A DNA stretch of 64,000 nt from Dehalococcoidales bacterium (GTDB lineage: Bacteria; Chloroflexota; Dehalococcoidia; Dehalococcoidales; UBA5627). The position numbers and the translations under genes are program-made. The stretch covers positions 8,900 to 72,899 of the forward strand of contig JAQTUQ010000002.1 in the NCBI GenBank assembly GCA_028707255.1, in the 5' to 3' direction. Numbering within the stretch: position 1 is the stretch's first letter; each line of letters opens with the position of its first letter. Shown piece by piece: positions 5,276-18,250 of the stretch. The notes beneath the pieces were generated by a model. It was given only the letters and a program-made list of their open reading frames with translations, searched no databases and was not told the origin of the DNA.

Positions 5276-7678
5276 ATGATTACAAAGGCTAAATCAGTCT
5301 TGCAAATCCCCCTTATTATTTTATTAGCTCTTTTGATGTTTTTCTCTGCGACTTCATCTTCATCCGTGTCGGCTGCTACAGGCATTACTCTCTCTACTTA
5401 TACAGGTTCACCGGGAGATTCCGTCTCAATATCTGGGACTTTTGATACAGTTGCCAGTGGAGCGGCTATAATTACTTTTAACGATATGTACATTGGATTA
5501 GTTACCATCAGTTCCGGTTCTTTTAACTCGACTTTTCAGGTTCCGGTGCTGCCGCGCGGTAAATATGCTGTAAATGTCTCCGTGGAAGGTAGTTCTATTA
5601 GTCTTTCGGAAGAGTTTACCATTAAACCAGCTATTGATATTGATAAGAATACAGTAAAGGTAGGAGAACAAATAACGATAACAGGGAGCGGATTCAGCTC
5701 CGGTAACGTTTCCATCTACATGGATAACGGTTCTACTCCGCTTGTAATAACCACTGCCGATGTATCAGGCGTGCTTAATCCGGTTACGATAACAGTTCCG
5801 GCAGCCAATAAAGCAACTCATATACTTAAAGCCATAGATATTATCGGAACCGCCGGTGCGGTTTTTACTACATTTAATATTATTCCTTCAATTAACTTGT
5901 CCGATGAGATAAGCGGCGCCGGCGCACAAATAACTATAACAGGAAACGGTTTTACCAGTTCATCTATGATTACGATTAGTTTAAATTCAGTAGTCGTGCC
6001 GACATCATCGATTGTTACCGATATTAACGGAACTTTTATAGCGAATATCACATTGTCATTAACTATTGTTAAAGGAAATTACACCGTAATGGCTGCCGAT
6101 ACTACGGGAAATGTAGCGGTAACAAATCTGACAATCTGCCAGAGCATATCCATCAGCCGGGAAGCCGGTATTGTAAATGATGTCATTACCGTTAACGGAG
6201 CGAGCTTTGACTCAAATAAATCGGTGTCGATATATTTTAATAATACTGCATTGGCTTATGCACAAACCGATGCTTACGGAGCATTTTCCTCCAGCCTGTC
6301 CGTTCCGGTGGTCGCTCAGGGGGAATATGCAATTAAAGCCATCGATTCAAATAACAACGAGGCTATTGAATTATTTACTGTTGAGCCTCATATAACGATA
6401 ACACCTGTTGCGGATAAAGTCGGAACCCAAATCAGTATCAGTGGATATGGCTTTGCTGCCTCATCTGATATAACTGTATTTTTTGATAGTGCAAACGCAG
6501 GAGTCATTAAGACGAGTGTCAATGGTACTTTTGATATCGATGTCGTTATACCTCCCACCCCTTGCGGCGAACATCTTATAAAAGCCATAGACGAGCAAAA
6601 TAATCAGAGTTCTACTCCTTTTACTACTGTTTCCGATATTTCGCTGGATTATAATACGGGCATTTATGGTGATACGGTTATTATCTCGGGTACCGGTTTT
6701 GCCGCCGGCAGCTCATTTAGTAATATGATTACTTTTACCATTGGTACTACTGCGCTTAATATGAATGAGGGAAATATTTTTACGGATATCTACGGTAGTT
6801 TTACCGCCAGTTTTAACATCCCTGAGACAGTAAATGGAATCCATATTATCAAGGCAACGGATACTTTCGGTAATACCGACAATACTTCTGTAACAATCGA
6901 ACCCAGTATTATATCCAGCATTTCAACGGGCGTCGCCGGCGACGAAGTGCAAATATCGGGTTACGGTTTTGCACCCAATAAAAAATTAGATATTAAATAT
7001 AACAATGTTATTATCAACACTACATTGGGTACCGTAACGACAAGTGTTACCGGCAGCTTCATAGCCTCATTTATACTTCCTGATATAAGTGCCGGCACTT
7101 ATGTCATAGAAGCCGGTGACGGAAACAATACCGCTTTAATCGATTTTATTCTGGTATATGAAACAATTCCCCCTCCCGAGGTAGCCCTTATTTCTCCCAT
7201 AGACGGTGGTAAGATTACACAGCCCGTTTTATTCAGCTGGAGTGCTTCCAGTGATCCCAGCGGTGTTTTTTATAGACTACAGGTTGGAACCGATGCTACT
7301 TTCAGCACATTATTGGTTGATGTCAGTGACCTTACTGCAACAACATATACCATGAACGCAGAAAATAAACTGGATTCGGTCAATGCGAAGAGCCCATATC
7401 ACTGGAGAGTAATGGCTATTGACGGAGTGGGCAACACAAGCGGCTGGACGGCTGACACCTTTGTCGTCGGTTTCGTCTGGCCTGTCTGGTTGACATATGT
7501 TCTAGCGGGAATTGCCGGGCTGGTATTTCTTATTGTTATAGGTTTTTGGCTGGGGCGCAGAATAGCGATGCTTCGTAACGATAGTTCTTACAATTATAAT
7601 TTGGATACCGACCTCGAATATCGCTACAGGGATCAATATCCCGATGCCAGTTTAGACCATACTGATAAGTCTAAATAA
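5276..7678 (+). CDS. Large secreted, C-terminally membrane-anchored surface protein with about 8 Ig-like (IPT/TIG-type) repeats plus an FN3-like domain; candidate S-layer/cell-surface glycoprotein
   Basis: Signal peptide ending VSAATG. Modules of about 85-90 aa repeat, each containing I(T/S)I(T/S)G(S/N/Y/T)GF. The C-terminus has an FN3-like segment (YHWRVMAIDGVGNTSGW), one TM helix (VWLTYVLAGIAGLVFLIVIGFWLG) and a short charged tail. Confidence 0.65.
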   Translation: MITKAKSVLQIPLIILLALLMFFSATSSSSVSAATGITLSTYTGSPGDSVSISGTFDTVASGAAIITFNDMYIGLVTISSGSFNSTFQVPVLPRGKYAVNVSVEGSSISLSEEFTIKPAIDIDKNTVKVGEQITITGSGFSSGNVSIYMDNGSTPLVITTADVSGVLNPVTITVPAANKATHILKAIDIIGTAGAVFTTFNIIPSINLSDEISGAGAQITITGNGFTSSSMITISLNSVVVPTSSIVTDINGTFIANITLSLTIVKGNYTVMAADTTGNVAVTNLTICQSISISREAGIVNDVITVNGASFDSNKSVSIYFNNTALAYAQTDAYGAFSSSLSVPVVAQGEYAIKAIDSNNNEAIELFTVEPHITITPVADKVGTQISISGYGFAASSDITVFFDSANAGVIKTSVNGTFDIDVVIPPTPCGEHLIKAIDEQNNQSSTPFTTVSDISLDYNTGIYGDTVIISGTGFAAGSSFSNMITFTIGTTALNMNEGNIFTDIYGSFTASFNIPETVNGIHIIKATDTFGNTDNTSVTIEPSIISSISTGVAGDEVQISGYGFAPNKKLDIKYNNVIINTTLGTVTTSVTGSFIASFILPDISAGTYVIEAGDGNNTALIDFILVYETIPPPEVALISPIDGGKITQPVLFSWSASSDPSGVFYRLQVGTDATFSTLLVDVSDLTATTYTMNAENKLDSVNAKSPYHWRVMAIDGVGNTSGWTADTFVVGFVWPVWLTYVLAGIAGLVFLIVIGFWLGRRIAMLRNDSSYNYNLDTDLEYRYRDQYPDASLDHTDKSK

Positions 7679-11548: not shown

Positions 11549-12565
11549 TTGGCGTGGACTGATAAACTTCAGTACGACCCGATTCACCTGCTAATAGATG
11601 CCGATAACGGCGCAATCCGTTACTTAACGACACGCGATTTGCTTGATGACTATGTACCCCAGGTCGATACACTCTGGAATATTAATGATGCAAAGGGTAT
11701 CCTGAAAAGGCAAAAACCCGGCGGCTACTGGGTGTATCCGGGAAAAAGCGAAGATTATCGCCTGCTGGAAACCTTTAAAAACCTGCAATCGCTGGTATAT
11801 AAATACCAGTTTAATCGAAGTAATCATGCTATTGAAGCTGCTTGTGAATACCTGCTCTCTTACCAAACGTACGAAGGCGACATCAGGGGTTTTATAGGCA
11901 ATCAGTATGCGCCATATTACACAGGACTCGTCACTGTTCTATTAATTTCTGCCGGATACGAAGACGATACCAGGATTATAAAAGCCCTTGAATGGCTGCT
12001 GTCGGTAAGGCAAAACGACGGAGGCTGGGTAATCGGAAGCCCGGGGATAACCGGAAATTCGGAATTAAAATTGAAGGATATCATTTATCTGACATCCGAT
12101 AAAACAGCCCCTGTGCTTAAACCGTACGATAAATCGAAACCATTTTCACACTCCGGTACTGGAATGGTGATCAGAGCTTTTGCAGCGCATCCCCAATACC
12201 GCACAAACCCCGATATGTTAAAGGCAGCTTATCTATTAAAATCACAATTCTTCAAGGAAGATAATTACAACTCATACAAAGATGCTGACCACTGGTTAAG
12301 ATTCCAATACCCTTTCTGGTGGAACAATCTGGTGGCAGCACTGGATTCACTTTCACTTATCGGGATATTGCCGGTGGATAATGATATTATTAATGCATTG
12401 GAGTGGCTAATTTCCAAACAGGAAGCGGATGGTTTATGGAAAATATCATATTCGGTTATTCATAAGTCCACTGTTAATAAAAAGAGCAAAGAGCAGCAAT
12501 TATGGATAACGCTGGCTATATGCAGAATATTCAAACGTTTTTATAATCATTCTCATGAAAATTAA
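11549..12565 (+). CDS. Hypothetical protein with prenyltransferase/squalene-oxidase-like (alpha/alpha toroid) repeats
   Basis: 338 aa with repeated LEWL(L/I)S.Q..DG.W-type motifs (ALEWLLSVRQNDGGWV; ALEWLISKQEADGLWK; KPGGYWVYPG). TTG start in the track. The function call rests on motif resemblance only. Confidence 0.45.
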   Translation: MAWTDKLQYDPIHLLIDADNGAIRYLTTRDLLDDYVPQVDTLWNINDAKGILKRQKPGGYWVYPGKSEDYRLLETFKNLQSLVYKYQFNRSNHAIEAACEYLLSYQTYEGDIRGFIGNQYAPYYTGLVTVLLISAGYEDDTRIIKALEWLLSVRQNDGGWVIGSPGITGNSELKLKDIIYLTSDKTAPVLKPYDKSKPFSHSGTGMVIRAFAAHPQYRTNPDMLKAAYLLKSQFFKEDNYNSYKDADHWLRFQYPFWWNNLVAALDSLSLIGILPVDNDIINALEWLISKQEADGLWKISYSVIHKSTVNKKSKEQQLWITLAICRIFKRFYNHSHEN

Positions 12566-14519: not shown

Positions 14520-15068
14520 TTATCCGTGGATCCGTAAGAAACAGTTTACAACCTGAACAATATCAGCCCCGCTAAATGGTTTATGCATTACCCCGAACGG
14601 CCCATATTGCAGGGCTTTCATCATGAGTTCGCTTTCCGGATAACCGGTTATGATAATAACCTGCATCTCCGGTTTTGCCTGTTTAATCTGCCTGAATAGT
14701 TCAGCGCCATCGATACCCGGCATTTTTAAGTCTAGAAAAACCAGATCTAAATTCTGGCTTTTGGCAATTGCTAATCCATGGACGGCTGATTCGGCTATTA
14801 AAACATCATGTCCAAGGTTACTTAGAGTCATATCAATCAATTTACCGATGGTTTTTTCATCATCTATGACAAGTATACGTTTTTTTACAGTAATCCCGTT
14901 TTCTTTTAACCAGTCGTTTAATTCTTCTCTGTCGAATCGCCATAACTTACCTACCCTGGTAGCAGGAATGGCATTTTTATCCAGCAATCTATGGATTGTT
15001 TTTTCAGTAACCCTGAGGTATAATGCGACTTCTTTTAACGTCATCAAGTTTTTTTCATTATTCTGCAT
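14520..15068 (-). CDS. Response regulator with an N-terminal excisionase/MerR-type HTH and a C-terminal receiver domain
   Basis: 182 aa. The HTH is LMTLKEVALYLRVTEKTIHRLLDKNAIPATRVGKLWRF. The REC domain has ILVIDDE and the phospho-acceptor context LVFLDLKMPGIDG. Confidence 0.8.
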   Translation of the reverse strand: MQNNEKNLMTLKEVALYLRVTEKTIHRLLDKNAIPATRVGKLWRFDREELNDWLKENGITVKKRILVIDDEKTIGKLIDMTLSNLGHDVLIAESAVHGLAIAKSQNLDLVFLDLKMPGIDGAELFRQIKQAKPEMQVIIITGYPESELMMKALQYGPFGVMHKPFSGADIVQVVNCFLRIHG

Positions 15069-15239
15069 TTATAATATCCGTTAATCAGGGTGGTTTCTAA
15101 TAGTACTCCGTGTAACTTCCGGAAAATATTACTGTCAATAATAGTACAAAGTTGCTATAAAGTCTACTATTATCGACATTTTTCTCTTTCATATATAAAG
15201 TACTTTGTTTAATTTGCCCAAACCTAGTTAAAAGTAATA

Positions 15240-15269
15240 TTGACATTATTAAAGAAGTGTGGTTAAAAT
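15240..15269 (+). promoter_or_regulatory. Putative sigma-70 promoter for the tubulin-like gene
   Basis: TTGACA (15240-15245), then a 17-18-nt spacer, then TTAAAAT (15263-15269). This fits the RBS GGAGGG and the ATG at 15307. Confidence 0.4.
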
Positions 15270-15306
15270 AGCCTACAATTCGAATGAATCATTTGGAGGG
15301 AGAAAA

Positions 15307-16476
15307 ATGAAATTAGTAGTCATCGGTTTCGGGCAGTGTGGCAGTCGTATTGCTGATGAGTTTGCTCGCTTAAATAAAAGAGCAATCAGTAGCAGAGGAA
15401 TAGAAATTACTCCGGGTATTTTTGCCGTTAACACGGATGCTGCTGACCTGAGCGGATTAACCACCATTAAGGCCGATTATCAGCACAGAATACTTATCGG
15501 CGGACGCAAAACAGGCGGACACGGAGTAGGTAAAATCAATGAACTCGGCGCTGAAGTTGCCCGGGAAGATGCTGATAAAATTGTCGATGCGCTCAGGACA
15601 ACCAAACGTTTCTACGATACCGATGGGTTCCTCCTGATTGCCAGCGCTGCGGGCGGCACCGGTTCGGGTGCAATTCCCATTATTGCTCAGCACATTAAAG
15701 AGCGCTATATGGATAAACCTTTATATGCCCTGATTGTGCTGCCTTTCGAACATGAAGAGCAAAACGAGGAAAGAACTGTTTACAATACCGCTGTCTGTCT
15801 TAAGTCGGTTTACTCGGTAGCCGATGCGGTTATTCTGGTAGACAACCAGAGATATGTCAGAAAAGATTTCTCCCTTAAAAATAACCTCGATAAGATTAAT
15901 TCCCTGATTGCTGCCCCGTTCTACAATCTGCTTTGCGCCGGTGAGGAAAAGAAAGCAGCTCATGTAGGAGCCAAGACACTGGATGCCGGTGACATTATAC
16001 AGACACTGCTCGGATGGACGGTTATCGGTTACGGTGAATCAAAAATAGAACGCTTCAATTTATTCGGCTCCGGCGGATTCAGAGATAAGAGCAACCAGAC
16101 TCATAAAGCGGTACAGGCAATGGATGCTGCTATCAGCGAAATTTCTACCCGCTGTAACCCTAAAGATGCCTCAAGAGCTATGTACTTGATAACAGCTCCC
16201 GCCAAGGAAATAAACATGGATATGGTAAAAGAGATGGGTGACTGGATGAGAGATATGGCTCCCAATGCTATTATTCGTAACGGTGATTATCCGAGGGACG
16301 GAACCAATATGAATGTTACCGTCATCCTTTCCGAATTGAGCGACGTTGAAAAGGTCCGGAAGTACTATAATGCATCGACAGACCTCGTGCCCGTTATTAA
16401 ACAGAGGCAGAAAGACGTTGCTTCCAAGTTACAGTCTATCGATGACCTTGGGAAAGACATCCCTACCCTCTTATAA
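15307..16476 (+). CDS. Tubulin/FtsZ-superfamily GTPase, CetZ-like rather than FtsZ-like
   Basis: The preferred start is the ATG at 15307, preceded by GGAGGG; the track start at 15259 is GTG. The N-terminus MKLVVIGFGQCGSRIADEF has a tubulin-type GQxG, not the FtsZ GGGGxN. Tubulin signature AAGGTGSG is present. GHGVGKINELGAEVAREDADKI, VILVDNQRY and RNGDYP segments are collinear with my recollection of haloarchaeal CetZ1. Confidence 0.7.
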   Translation: MKLVVIGFGQCGSRIADEFARLNKRAISSRGIEITPGIFAVNTDAADLSGLTTIKADYQHRILIGGRKTGGHGVGKINELGAEVAREDADKIVDALRTTKRFYDTDGFLLIASAAGGTGSGAIPIIAQHIKERYMDKPLYALIVLPFEHEEQNEERTVYNTAVCLKSVYSVADAVILVDNQRYVRKDFSLKNNLDKINSLIAAPFYNLLCAGEEKKAAHVGAKTLDAGDIIQTLLGWTVIGYGESKIERFNLFGSGGFRDKSNQTHKAVQAMDAAISEISTRCNPKDASRAMYLITAPAKEINMDMVKEMGDWMRDMAPNAIIRNGDYPRDGTNMNVTVILSELSDVEKVRKYYNASTDLVPVIKQRQKDVASKLQSIDDLGKDIPTLL

Positions 16477-16500
16477 AACTGCTTGTATGTTCGTTCTTTA

Positions 16501-16530
16501 CCCCCCTCAAAAGCGAGGGGGGTTTTTATT
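16501..16530 (+). terminator. Rho-independent terminator after the tubulin-like gene
   Basis: Perfect 8-bp GC-rich stem (CCCCCCTC 16501-16508 pairs with GAGGGGGG 16515-16522) with a 6-nt loop, followed by TTTTTATTT. Confidence 0.85.
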
Positions 16531-16609
16531 TATCTCATCTGTCTTTAATCTACAGCGGAAAGTTCTTTGGGAAATACAGCCGTATAGGGTATAATAAGTA
16601 AACAAAATT

Positions 16610-18250
16610 ATGGAATCACAGGTTTTTTATCGAAAATGGCGCCCCCAGACACTGGCTGAAGTTGCCGGGCAGGAGCATGTAACTCAAACACTTTTAAATG
16701 CTCTCAGCAGCGGTCATATCTCCCATGCCTACCTTTTTTGCGGGCCGAGAGGAACCGGAAAAACCAGCACCGGACGCATCCTTTCCAAGGCTGTAAACTG
16801 CACGTCCAATGGCAAAGGGGAGCCGTGTAACACCTGCGAAATGTGTACGGCGATAACCGAAGGCAGAGCGATGGATGTCATTGAAATCGACGCTGCCAGC
16901 AATCGCGGTATAGATGAAATAAGAAATCTGCGCGAGCGCGTTAATTATGCTCCGGGTAAGGCACGCTATAAGATTTATATAATCGATGAGTTTCATATGC
17001 TCACAAAAGAAGCCTCCAATGCCCTGTTAAAGACGCTCGAAGAACCCCCATCGTGTGTCATTTTTATACTGGCAACTACCGAAGCGCACAAGGTACTGCC
17101 TACTATTATGTCAAGATGCCAGCGCTTCGATTTCCGTCGCATCAGCCAGAATGATATTGCAGAAAAATTAAACCAGATATGTGACAGCGAAGGCATTAAG
17201 ATAGAGCGGGAGGCCTTGAATGTGCTGGCTAAAAACTCTACCGGCAGCCTAAGGGACGCTGAAAACCTGCTTGAGAAACTATCTACCCACTATGGTTCCG
17301 ATATTAATCTCAACCAGGTAAGGGACATGTTGGGAATTACCGGCAATGAACGCATAAAGGAACTGGTAGAACATATTGTCAACGCAAATATTACCGGTGG
17401 AATAAAAACTATCAATGCCATAAACAGCGACGGTTTCGATTTAAAACAGTTGAACAGGGAACTCATTGCCTACCTCAGGGGGTTACTGCTTTTAAAGACC
17501 GGATACAGTAATGATCTTGATTTTACTCCCGAAGAGACAGTCGTACTGGCAGAACTGGCTGATAAATCAACCGTTGAGCAAATATTAAAAGCTATCTAGA
17601 TATTCGGCAAACTGGAGCTCAATCTCGATAGCTACTCGACTCTGCCGCTGGAACTGGCTATGGTGGATTGCTCCCTGTTATCTTCAGAGGCAAATTCGAC
17701 ACCTTTCATTAGACCGCAGCCACCGATATCAGATATCAAGCCGGCAAAAGGGACAATACCATCCGCCCTGGCAATCGCAAAGAACGTAAAACCGGAATCT
17801 GCAAGTGTAAACGAACCCGATGTTAATACGAAACCTGAAACAATTAAGGAGTCAGATAAGGCTATAAAGGAAGATCTCCCTGTAAAAGCACGTACCGAAA
17901 TAAGCGAACACAGTAATAAACTGGAATACTTGAGCACCAACTGGAAGAATGTCATCGAACATGCCCCCGATAATGTAAAAAGGTCGCCGGCTCTGGCAAT
18001 TTTAAGAAGCGCCGGCGTTAAACCTGTTGCTTTCGATGATAATATCGTTGTGCTCTCTTTCAGATTCCCCGTTCATAAGGATAAAATAGAAGAATCTGAA
18101 AATAACAAGATTGCCGCTAAAATAATCGGTAATTTCATCGGCCATGCCTGCGAGGTACGTTGTATATACGAACCGGAAGAAAACCACCTGGTACGTGAAA
18201 TTCAGAAAATCGGCGGACAAATAGTCGAAGTGGAGGAAAAATGGACTTAA
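16610..18250 (+). CDS. dnaX: DNA polymerase III subunit gamma/tau, interrupted by one in-frame TAG at 17597-17599
   Basis: ORF 16610-17599 carries the AAA+ clamp-loader motifs (GPRGTGKTS, the zinc module CNTCEMC, IIDEFHML, SRCQRF). The reading continues in the same frame after TAG (…EQILKAI*IFGKLELNLDSYSTLPLELAMVDCSLL…) into track ORF 17660-18250, which supplies the rest of domain III and the C-terminal region. Confidence 0.85.

Follow-up and report, generated by a model that had tools for sequence, protein, structure and literature searches.

A CetZ-like GTPase gene beside dnaX in a Dehalococcoidales genome: a new member of a bacterial tubulin-superfamily branch already reported but not yet studied

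The CetZ-like gene and its flanking signals

The DNA analysed here (the window: 64 kb of contig JAQTUQ010000002.1, assembly GCA_028707255.1, from a Dehalococcoidales bacterium of the Chloroflexota) contains, upstream of dnaX, a gene for a CetZ-like GTPase of the tubulin superfamily, which in the list of open reading frames (ORFs) extends over 15307..16476 of the plus strand (389 amino acids (aa) plus stop). The ORF opens with an ATG at 15307 (opening letters MKLVVIGFGQCG); the GTG at 15259, from which a listed 405-aa version would start, lies inside a conserved promoter-like element and is not credible. This element (TTGACA-18-TAAAAT, 15240-15269, plus strand), which agreed with the consensus at 11 of 12 positions, is followed by a Shine-Dalgarno sequence (GGAGGGAG, 15295-15302, plus strand) ahead of the ATG, and a hairpin with a T-run that resembles an intrinsic terminator (16500-16533, plus strand; 9-bp stem with 7 GC pairs, then TTTTTATTTAT) is placed between the CetZ-like gene and dnaX, the latter having a promoter-like site of its own (TTGGGA-17-TATAAT, 16567-16595). 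Approximately 80 bp upstream of the cetZ-like start are nearly invariant in seven related species despite their differing upstream genes, which provides phylogenetic support for a private promoter. The private expression signals (promoter-like element, Shine-Dalgarno sequence and terminator) proposed in a preceding sequence-only reading of this DNA were thus recovered by consensus and hairpin scans, with the promoter conserved across species. The GC content of the gene is unremarkable, and an exact-match search returned no record of the window protein.

The product carries an N-terminal GTP-binding domain (Pfam PF00091, aa 3-182, 15313..15852, plus strand, as for all features of the gene) with the T1 loop GFGQCG (aa 7-12, 15325-15342) and the T4 signature GGTGSG (aa 116-121, 15652-15669), a CetZ-type C-terminal domain (Pfam PF21011 CetZ_C, aa 189-355, 15871..16371) with the acidic pair of the T7 (synergy) loop (D226-A-G-D229, 15982..15993, located by alignment to CetZ1) and the motif RNGDYP (R324-N-G-D-Y-P329), and an extreme C-terminal peptide, KDIPTLL (16453..16473), which follows a long C-terminal helix. 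The ORF is therefore real and its 389-aa product has GFGQCG, GGTGSG and RNGDYP as had been claimed. Among 240 Dehalococcoidia homologues GGTGSG is universal (240/240) and GxGQCG nearly so (224/240).

Family assignment

Two Pfam profiles matched the window protein above their gathering thresholds, namely Tubulin (PF00091: 121.9 bits vs. a cut-off of 33, E 5.1e-35) and CetZ_C (PF21011: 69.7 bits vs. a cut-off of 21.6, E 2.8e-19, 174 of 180 profile positions); the Pfam scan gave no FtsZ_C and no Tubulin_C, Tubulin_2 (PF13809) remained below threshold (17.2 bits vs. a cut-off of 27) and the NCBIfam FtsZ equivalog TIGR00065 was not passed (66.8 bits vs. a cut-off of 295.2). When PDB sequences were ranked with phmmer, the first place was taken by CetZ1 of Haloferax volcanii (4b46, E 1.9e-46, residues 1-378 of 389), succeeded by CetZ2 (2.6e-29) and Methanosaeta CetZ (1.1e-15), with the best FtsZ at 7e-13, tubulin-type matches at about 4e-8 to 4e-6, and no TubZ among the best 60 matches. 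The full-length collinearity with CetZ1, which the sequence-only reading had asserted, is borne out by BLASTP (30% identity over 396 columns, E 1e-48), and the CetZ1 strings that it had quoted match residue for residue in the alignment to PDB 4b46.

A hidden Markov model (HMM) built from 39 archaeal CetZ representatives only gave 312 bits to the window protein (CetZ2: 375); with HMMs of FtsZ and of tubulin the window protein reached 49 and 23 bits, respectively. At 18 columns that discriminate archaeal CetZ from FtsZ (a set of our own, in which each group has a different conserved residue, rather than the published list of PMC9856176) the protein shows the CetZ state 13 times and the FtsZ state at none. 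According to the survey by Brown & Duggin (2023, PMC9856176), the CetZ-specific residues that differ from FtsZ lie mostly around the nucleotide pocket.

Membership of the TubZ/FtsZL1 group was rejected on the sub-threshold Tubulin_2 match and on a chromosomal, housekeeping locus with no plasmid or phage setting, and membership of the tubulins, BtubA/B or Asgard tubulins on the missing Tubulin_C, the 23 bits on the tubulin HMM and the weak PDB E-values. The Pfam, NCBIfam, PDB, HMM and fold rankings agree with the earlier claim of a CetZ-like homologue as opposed to an FtsZ, TubZ, FtsZL1 or tubulin, and we regard the CetZ-family identity of the window protein as close to certain.

Predicted structure, catalytic residues and C-terminal tail

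An AlphaFold2 (AF2) model computed from 91 sequences (haloarchaeal CetZs included) reached a predicted local distance difference test (pLDDT) of 87 and a predicted template modelling score (pTM) of 0.87; an earlier alignment of 28 close homologues (at least 74% identical) gave a pLDDT of 45 and was not usable. The top four Foldseek matches in the PDB were CetZ chains (CetZ1, CetZ2 and Methanosaeta CetZ), and against CetZ1 the model had a target-normalised TM-score of 0.91 with a root-mean-square deviation of 2.6 Å. The fold predicted by the model is CetZ-like, and the T7 inspection, proposed together with structure prediction as a check, found the D226/D229 pair in place: the two residues align with D215/E218 of CetZ1 (gap-free BLASTP block, constant offset of 11), and we take them to be equivalent to D209/D212 of FtsZ (E. 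coli numbering). D226 is invariant in the 91 sequences, the haloarchaeal CetZs among them, and D229 in the 28 close homologues; as the acidic pair is both aligned with that of CetZ1 and conserved, the apparatus for polymerisation-coupled GTP hydrolysis appears to be present. Judged by their residues, the T1 and T4 nucleotide loops and the T7 acidic pair are intact. The M-loop (aa 247-257, 16045-16077) is short, modelled with low confidence (the pLDDT dips at aa 249-259) and contains hydrophobic residues.

A long predicted helix (aa 348-382) leads up to the terminal KDIPTLL of the protein. The pattern [DNE][IVL]P[STA] plus two hydrophobic residues terminates 232 of the 240 Dehalococcoidia homologues, and EL[ED][PS]LF terminates 119 of 120 haloarchaeal CetZs. 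FtsZ has a C-terminal peptide similar to KDIPTLL (DIPAFLR in E. coli, DVPSFLRK in Dehalococcoidales FtsZ), and this peptide recruits FtsA, ZipA or SepF. The earlier statement that a typical FtsZ C-terminal peptide is lacking is thus literally true, but it passes over a conserved peptide of the same type. In CetZ1, mutation of the LESLF tail abolished rod formation (bioRxiv 10.1101/2024.04.08.588506). By analogy, KDIP[ST]LL might act as a docking peptide, a proposal that we rate somewhat below an even prospect.

Position in the tubulin superfamily

Of 1.84 billion cluster representatives, all of which were scanned, 80 matched at E <= 1e-30 and 290 at E <= 1e-10. In a neighbour-joining (NJ) tree of full-length representatives, locus paralogues, CetZ1, CetZ2, five FtsZs, and alpha and beta tubulin, FtsZ was split from CetZ plus tubulin with 100% bootstrap, so that the phylogeny which the sequence-only reading had recommended places the window clade on the CetZ/tubulin side. 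The window protein, all Dehalococcoidales copies and a series of intermediates (34-55% identity) formed a single clade (96% bootstrap) that leaves out CetZ1, CetZ2 and every archaeal representative sampled. In PMC9856176 the Thermococcales CetZ marks the boundary of the canonical CetZ clade; our tree is without a labelled Thermococcales sequence.

Identity to the nearest archaeal proteins is 30-35%, the nearest named ones being Nitrososphaerales 'tubulin/FtsZ family' proteins (33-34%) and haloarchaeal CetZs (30-33%). Names were attached to representatives from Dehalococcoidia (P0121, P0132) and Nitrososphaerales (P0161, P0162), and the clade A representatives P0135, P0136, P0139 and P0140 carried no taxon label; a profile made from 15 intermediate representatives matched only consensus-like Dehalococcoidales proteins. 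Furthermore, we observed a second CetZ-like clade (418 aa; P0150, loci L081-L153), common in marine metagenomes, approximately 35% identical to the window protein and with the same Tubulin plus CetZ_C architecture (e.g. L093 10001-11254; L101 3326-4597 and 12254-12738). Pfam searches of the neighbours at L093 did not reveal the domain of life, and an Rfam scan found a bacterial class A RNase P RNA on the L101 contig, so that the marine clade, too, is bacterial and there are at least two bacterial CetZ-like lineages.

Distribution, synteny and selection

The genes of the window are bacterial (HisRS, H+-pyrophosphatase, biotin carboxylase, GlnA, DnaX, YbaB, RecR and RecO, as well as LysRS, SerRS, a release factor, DnaG, RpoD, UvrA and DnaB), and the earlier description of the surrounding DNA as bacterial stands on this gene content (dnaX, recR, recO, dnaG, rpoD, uvrA, dnaB). 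Upstream of the locus, the window also encodes an 800-aa protein with an IPT/TIG domain (5276-7678, plus strand), which may be a surface protein, and a 338-aa protein with a squalene-hopene-cyclase-like repeat (11549-12565, plus strand).

A survey of homologues in related genomes, another of the checks that had been suggested, found CetZ-like relatives encoded in at least 143 species-level genomes (one genome per species, at least 143 loci), and the best 80 of 143 loci were kept for comparison. All 80 are labelled Dehalococcoidales, Dehalococcoidia or Chloroflexota with the exception of one (L060, contig CAVTZP010000003.1), titled 'uncultured delta proteobacterium' yet with full Dehalococcoidales synteny (ligA, pth, enolase, GAPDH, cetZ-like, dnaX, recR), a label that is probably wrong. 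About 57 of the 80 loci preserve the order cetZ-like, dnaX, ybaB, recR, recO, lysS, serS, and the synteny on the dnaX side spans the whole 64-97% identity range of the set. Upstream, most genomes have a block of ligA, pth, a SLOG-family gene, enolase, an HgdB-like gene and GAPDH, which has been replaced in the lineage of the window. As a separate observation on dnaX (16610-18250), the window has an in-frame TAG (17597-17599) in place of the Lys codon found in five relatives (L001-L005), whose DnaX is intact at about 545 aa; the TAG splits dnaX into 329- and 196-aa ORFs, and possible explanations are a nonsense mutation, an error of sequencing, or read-through.

The closest loci share 93-97% identity with the window gene at the protein level but 81-89% at the DNA level, and in comparison with eight closest relatives (L001-L005 and L007-L009) 118-188 codon differences are synonymous and 11-25 non-synonymous. 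On these sequence data the window is from a species different from those of the closest loci, and purifying selection on the CetZ-like gene is evidently strong. The synteny, the purifying selection and the unremarkable GC content fit neither a recent transfer nor a chimeric contig. The sequence-only reading had offered an inter-domain transfer or an unrecognised bacterial clade: a bacterial clade is what synteny, selection, the 30-35% archaeal identity and the 96% bootstrap point to, recent transfer having to be dropped, and we consider it very probable that this clade is old.

Paralogues, ftsZ and functional clues

In two loci (L030, 3811-9986; L068, 3848-9930) a CetZ-like paralogue lies directly downstream of canonical ftsA-ftsZ, in the order mraZ-rsmH-ftsA-ftsZ-cetZ-like-nrdR, and in a third (L080) ftsA-ftsZ is within 2 kb of the CetZ-like gene. 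Each of these ftsZ-adjacent paralogues at L030 and L068 arose by recent duplication of the dnaX-linked copy of its own metagenome-assembled genome (MAG), of which NZBQ01 comprises L030 and L046, and CAZCLE01 comprises L068 and L037. The division cluster at L030 and L068 is reduced in that the mur genes expected in a division and cell wall (dcw) cluster are absent, which is consistent with wall-less Dehalococcoidales. With regard to the canonical ftsZ whose presence elsewhere in the genome had been put forward for checking, ftsA-ftsZ is found in the MAGs of relatives, but none within the 64-kb window.

Moreover, 23 of the 80 loci (L028, L032, L034, L040 (3734-9179), L065, L076, L079 and 16 further) contain a second, older CetZ-like paralogue upstream of the dnaX-linked copy. 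Between the two paralogues lie two genes on the minus strand whose products are coiled-coil proteins, a smaller one (about 174 aa) and a larger one (about 700-740 aa) that has Ala/Glu/Lys-rich repeats and matches no Pfam profile above its gathering threshold. These proteins are possible filament partners; a tblastn search of the window found neither them nor the Dehalococcoidales FtsA.

Among cultured relatives, Dehalococcoides and Dehalogenimonas are without peptidoglycan and grow as irregular discs or flattened cocci, some with S-layers, and the ability to make peptidoglycan disappeared a single time, in an ancestor common to Dehalococcoidales and the marine radiation (PMC10284905). In D. 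mccartyi BTF08 an 'FtsZ/tubulin GTPase' (btf_0551) and FtsZ (btf_0595) were both detected in proteomes, and both were lower in a co-culture with aberrant barrel-shaped cells (PMC8163811).

The divergent response regulator

On the minus strand, a gene for a response regulator with a helix-turn-helix (HTH) domain of the excisionase type (HTH_17) and a receiver domain (14520..15068) is divergent from the CetZ-like gene, and Pfam and NCBIfam confirm this neighbour as first described; its domain order is unusual (HTH_17 N-terminal, receiver C-terminal). Within the 80 related loci the regulator adjoins the CetZ-like gene only in two (L001, L002), and in two others (L003, L005; 96% protein identity) it is absent and glnA lies directly upstream. 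The two genes share a 238-bp intergenic region with a 14-nt inverted repeat (TGTCAATAATAGTA, 15133-15146; TACTATTATCGACA, 15165-15178), and the stretch 15125-15251 holds three related TA(A/T)TAT-TGACA copies, all of which contain TTGACA and the third of which covers the -35 of the cetZ-like promoter. Conservation of the first two is confined to the two relatives with the regulator, and the third is kept whether the regulator is there or not. The repeats are candidate operators or simply promoters, and a regulatory link in this species is possible but unsupported.

Proposed role and competing explanations

We favour, as fairly probable, the reading that the window gene encodes a CetZ-family cytoskeletal GTPase which is vertically inherited and housekeeping-like in Dehalococcoidales (Chloroflexota). 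Under the mechanism that we propose, the protein would bind GTP and polymerise head to tail (like CetZ1, FtsZ and tubulin), with the T7 loop of one subunit activating hydrolysis in the next, KDIP[ST]LL at the end of the helix would tether the filament to a partner or to the membrane (cf. the CetZ1 LESLF tail and the FtsZ peptide), and the filament, at the envelope of peptidoglycan-free, S-layer-bounded cells, would set their shape and/or assist FtsZ-based division. On its motifs and modelled fold the protein is likely to be a polymerising GTPase; a role in shape or division, to which the neighbourhoods of the paralogues, the analogy with CetZ1 and FtsZ and one proteomic correlation point, is an evenly balanced proposition.

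Several observations weigh against this reading. Polymerisation, localisation and phenotype of the bacterial members are all inferred, and the fold ranking leans towards CetZ by construction, haloarchaeal CetZs having been in the AF2 alignment and CetZ structures having been public before training. The NJ tree contains unlabelled metagenomic representatives and gives archaeal CetZ monophyly 4% and the tubulin position 17% bootstrap, values compatible with a sister relationship of the bacterial clade to CetZ as well as with a nested one. Linkage to ftsA-ftsZ is seen only for a recent paralogue (3 of 80 loci), and tblastn with E. coli and Dehalococcoidales FtsZ found no canonical ftsZ in the 64-kb window. 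The window gene itself is monocistronic and is surrounded by genes of replication and translation instead of genes for division or the envelope, its strongest conserved neighbour (dnaX) could point to a DNA-related role, and btf_0551 is only a candidate orthologue of the window gene.

The absence of ftsZ from the window would suit a sole, divergent division FtsZ that forms the Z-ring, as would the frequent labelling of the homologues as 'cell division protein FtsZ' and the likeness of the tail to the FtsZ C-terminal peptide; however, the protein falls far short of TIGR00065 (66.8 vs. 295.2 bits), has no FtsZ_C and scores 49 bits on the FtsZ HMM vs. 312 on the CetZ one, its gene lies between a response regulator and dnaX and not in a dcw cluster with ftsA, the MAGs NZBQ01 and CAZCLE01 have a dnaX-linked orthologue plus canonical ftsA-ftsZ, and D. 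mccartyi BTF08 has both the FtsZ btf_0595 and btf_0551 (PMC8163811), all of which makes this explanation very improbable. Scarcely tenable is a recent transfer with an archaeal donor, or an assembly error that put a piece of archaeal DNA on a bacterial contig: the same chromosomal position recurs in dozens of independently assembled Dehalococcoidales genomes, the gene has a bacterial sigma-70-type promoter (conserved across species), a Shine-Dalgarno sequence, an intrinsic terminator and a normal composition, and it belongs to a separate clade (96% bootstrap) with 30-35% identity to the nearest archaeal proteins, even though its best characterised relatives are archaeal and CetZ is described as archaea-specific in the abstract of PMC11621097.

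The main functional rival is a DNA-related role, i.e. a filament for chromosome replication, nucleoid organisation or segregation (a TubZ/PhuZ-like job). YbaB is a nucleoid-associated protein family and is among the fixed neighbours, and no feature of the locus is better conserved than the order cetZ-like, dnaX, ybaB, recR (about 57 of 80 loci); against this, a terminator and a separate dnaX promoter stand between the two genes, no TubR-like or centromere partner is present, Tubulin_2 is below threshold with no TubZ in the best 60 PDB matches, the paralogues adjoin ftsA-ftsZ and coiled-coil genes instead, and the upstream neighbours are mostly glycolytic or housekeeping (GAPDH, enolase, pth, ligA), so that the arrangement looks like frozen gene order and a DNA-related role is unlikely. 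An equally small chance is given to conditional morphogenesis, in which, in this species, the HTH-receiver regulator would switch the CetZ-like gene in response to a signal. The divergent arrangement, the shared 238-bp region with its inverted repeat and the copy over the cetZ-like -35, and the conservation of the first two copies in both regulator-bearing relatives speak for it, but the repeats contain TTGACA and may simply be promoters (the regulator's own included), the regulator is missing from the locus in 78 of 80 relatives (L003 and L005 among them), and the cetZ-like core promoter and 5' untranslated region are the same with or without it. The control by the regulator that the sequence-only reading had suggested is thus not upheld.

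Returning to a vertically inherited CetZ-family cytoskeletal GTPase, we advance as a tentative and rather doubtful extension that CetZ is not confined to archaea and that an ancient bacterial CetZ branch in peptidoglycan-less Dehalococcoidia (Dehalococcoidales and the marine clade) could be a core, FtsA/FtsZ-associated cytoskeleton, whose tail (KDIPSLL) would share the membrane anchors of FtsZ and which would replace the shape role of the lost wall, convergent with, or inherited from, the archaeal solution.

The CetZ family appears as a core, slowly evolving gene across many Dehalococcoidales species, a group that has lost peptidoglycan, is S-layer-bounded like most archaea, and includes the organohalide-respiring Dehalococcoides and Dehalogenimonas of interest to bioremediation. 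Should the protein indeed shape or divide cells, it would bear on how a wall-less bacterium keeps its disc shape and would offer a natural bacterial system for the cooperation of a CetZ-type filament with FtsA and FtsZ. A deep bacterial branch also bears on the proposed origin of CetZ from archaeal FtsZ. The window itself adds one more orthologue of a family already in databases.

Comparison with known systems

The window protein resembles CetZ1 (PDB 4b46) in its full-length collinearity, Tubulin plus CetZ_C architecture, GxGQxG and GGTGSG loops, T7 pair, RxGDYP motif, long C-terminal helix and short hydrophobic C-terminal tail. It differs from it in its bacterial host (the window and the related loci are bacterial, in contrast to the archaeal host that the current CetZ literature gives for the family), in its tail (KDIPTLL vs. 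ELESLF), in its placement in a separate clade (96% bootstrap), in not being acidic, unlike haloarchaeal proteins, and in that no link to archaella or rod formation can be inferred for it. Its M-loop has about 11 residues, compared with the 14-26 given as typical of the CetZ1 subfamily in PMC9856176.

With FtsZ it shares the superfamily fold, the GTPase mechanism, the C-terminal D-I-P-x plus two hydrophobic residues and a paralogue beside ftsA-ftsZ, and it departs from FtsZ in the T1 loop (GQCG vs. GGGGxN), in the T4 loop (GGTGSG vs. GGGTGTG) and in having no FtsZ_C. TubZ, FtsZL1, BtubA/B and the Asgard tubulins are, likewise, tubulin-superfamily members in prokaryotes, from which it is set apart by the Tubulin_2 score (17.2 vs. 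27 bits), the lack of Tubulin_C and PDB E-values of 1e-6 to 1e-8. The D. mccartyi protein btf_0551 is similarly a second tubulin-family protein beside FtsZ, in a cultured member of Dehalococcoidales, with an abundance that changes with morphology; its authors treat it as a division protein and do not name it CetZ (PMC8163811).

CetZ-focused papers still call the family archaea-specific in their abstracts, and the Brown & Duggin survey (PMC9856176) deals with archaea only. The clade is nevertheless not 'unrecognised', as the sequence-only reading would have allowed: NCBI and JGI label the homologues 'tubulin/FtsZ family protein', 'cell division protein FtsZ' or, occasionally, 'tubulin-like protein CetZ', and Santana-Molina et al. 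(2023, PMC9871819) reported CetZ-like proteins of Chloroflexota-Dehalococcoidia as 'sparse paraphyletic groups', with a CetZ_C HMM that matches bacterial Chloroflexota sequences at about 1e-10. Since such proteins are present in that paper and in databases, and no paper in the literature searched characterises a bacterial member, the window gene counts as one more orthologue, itself new, in a bacterial branch that is known but has yet to be studied. The Dehalococcoidia proteins of PMC9871819 are of the same family as the window protein, in agreement with the Pfam CetZ_C match; compared with that report, the present analysis counts at least 143 species-level genomes with a family member, a fixed gene order at the locus, paralogues in many genomes and a second, 418-aa marine clade, and its additions to the literature examined are modest, namely the shared synteny, the paralogue that adjoins ftsA-ftsZ, the paired paralogues around coiled-coil genes, the conserved tail and the second bacterial clade.

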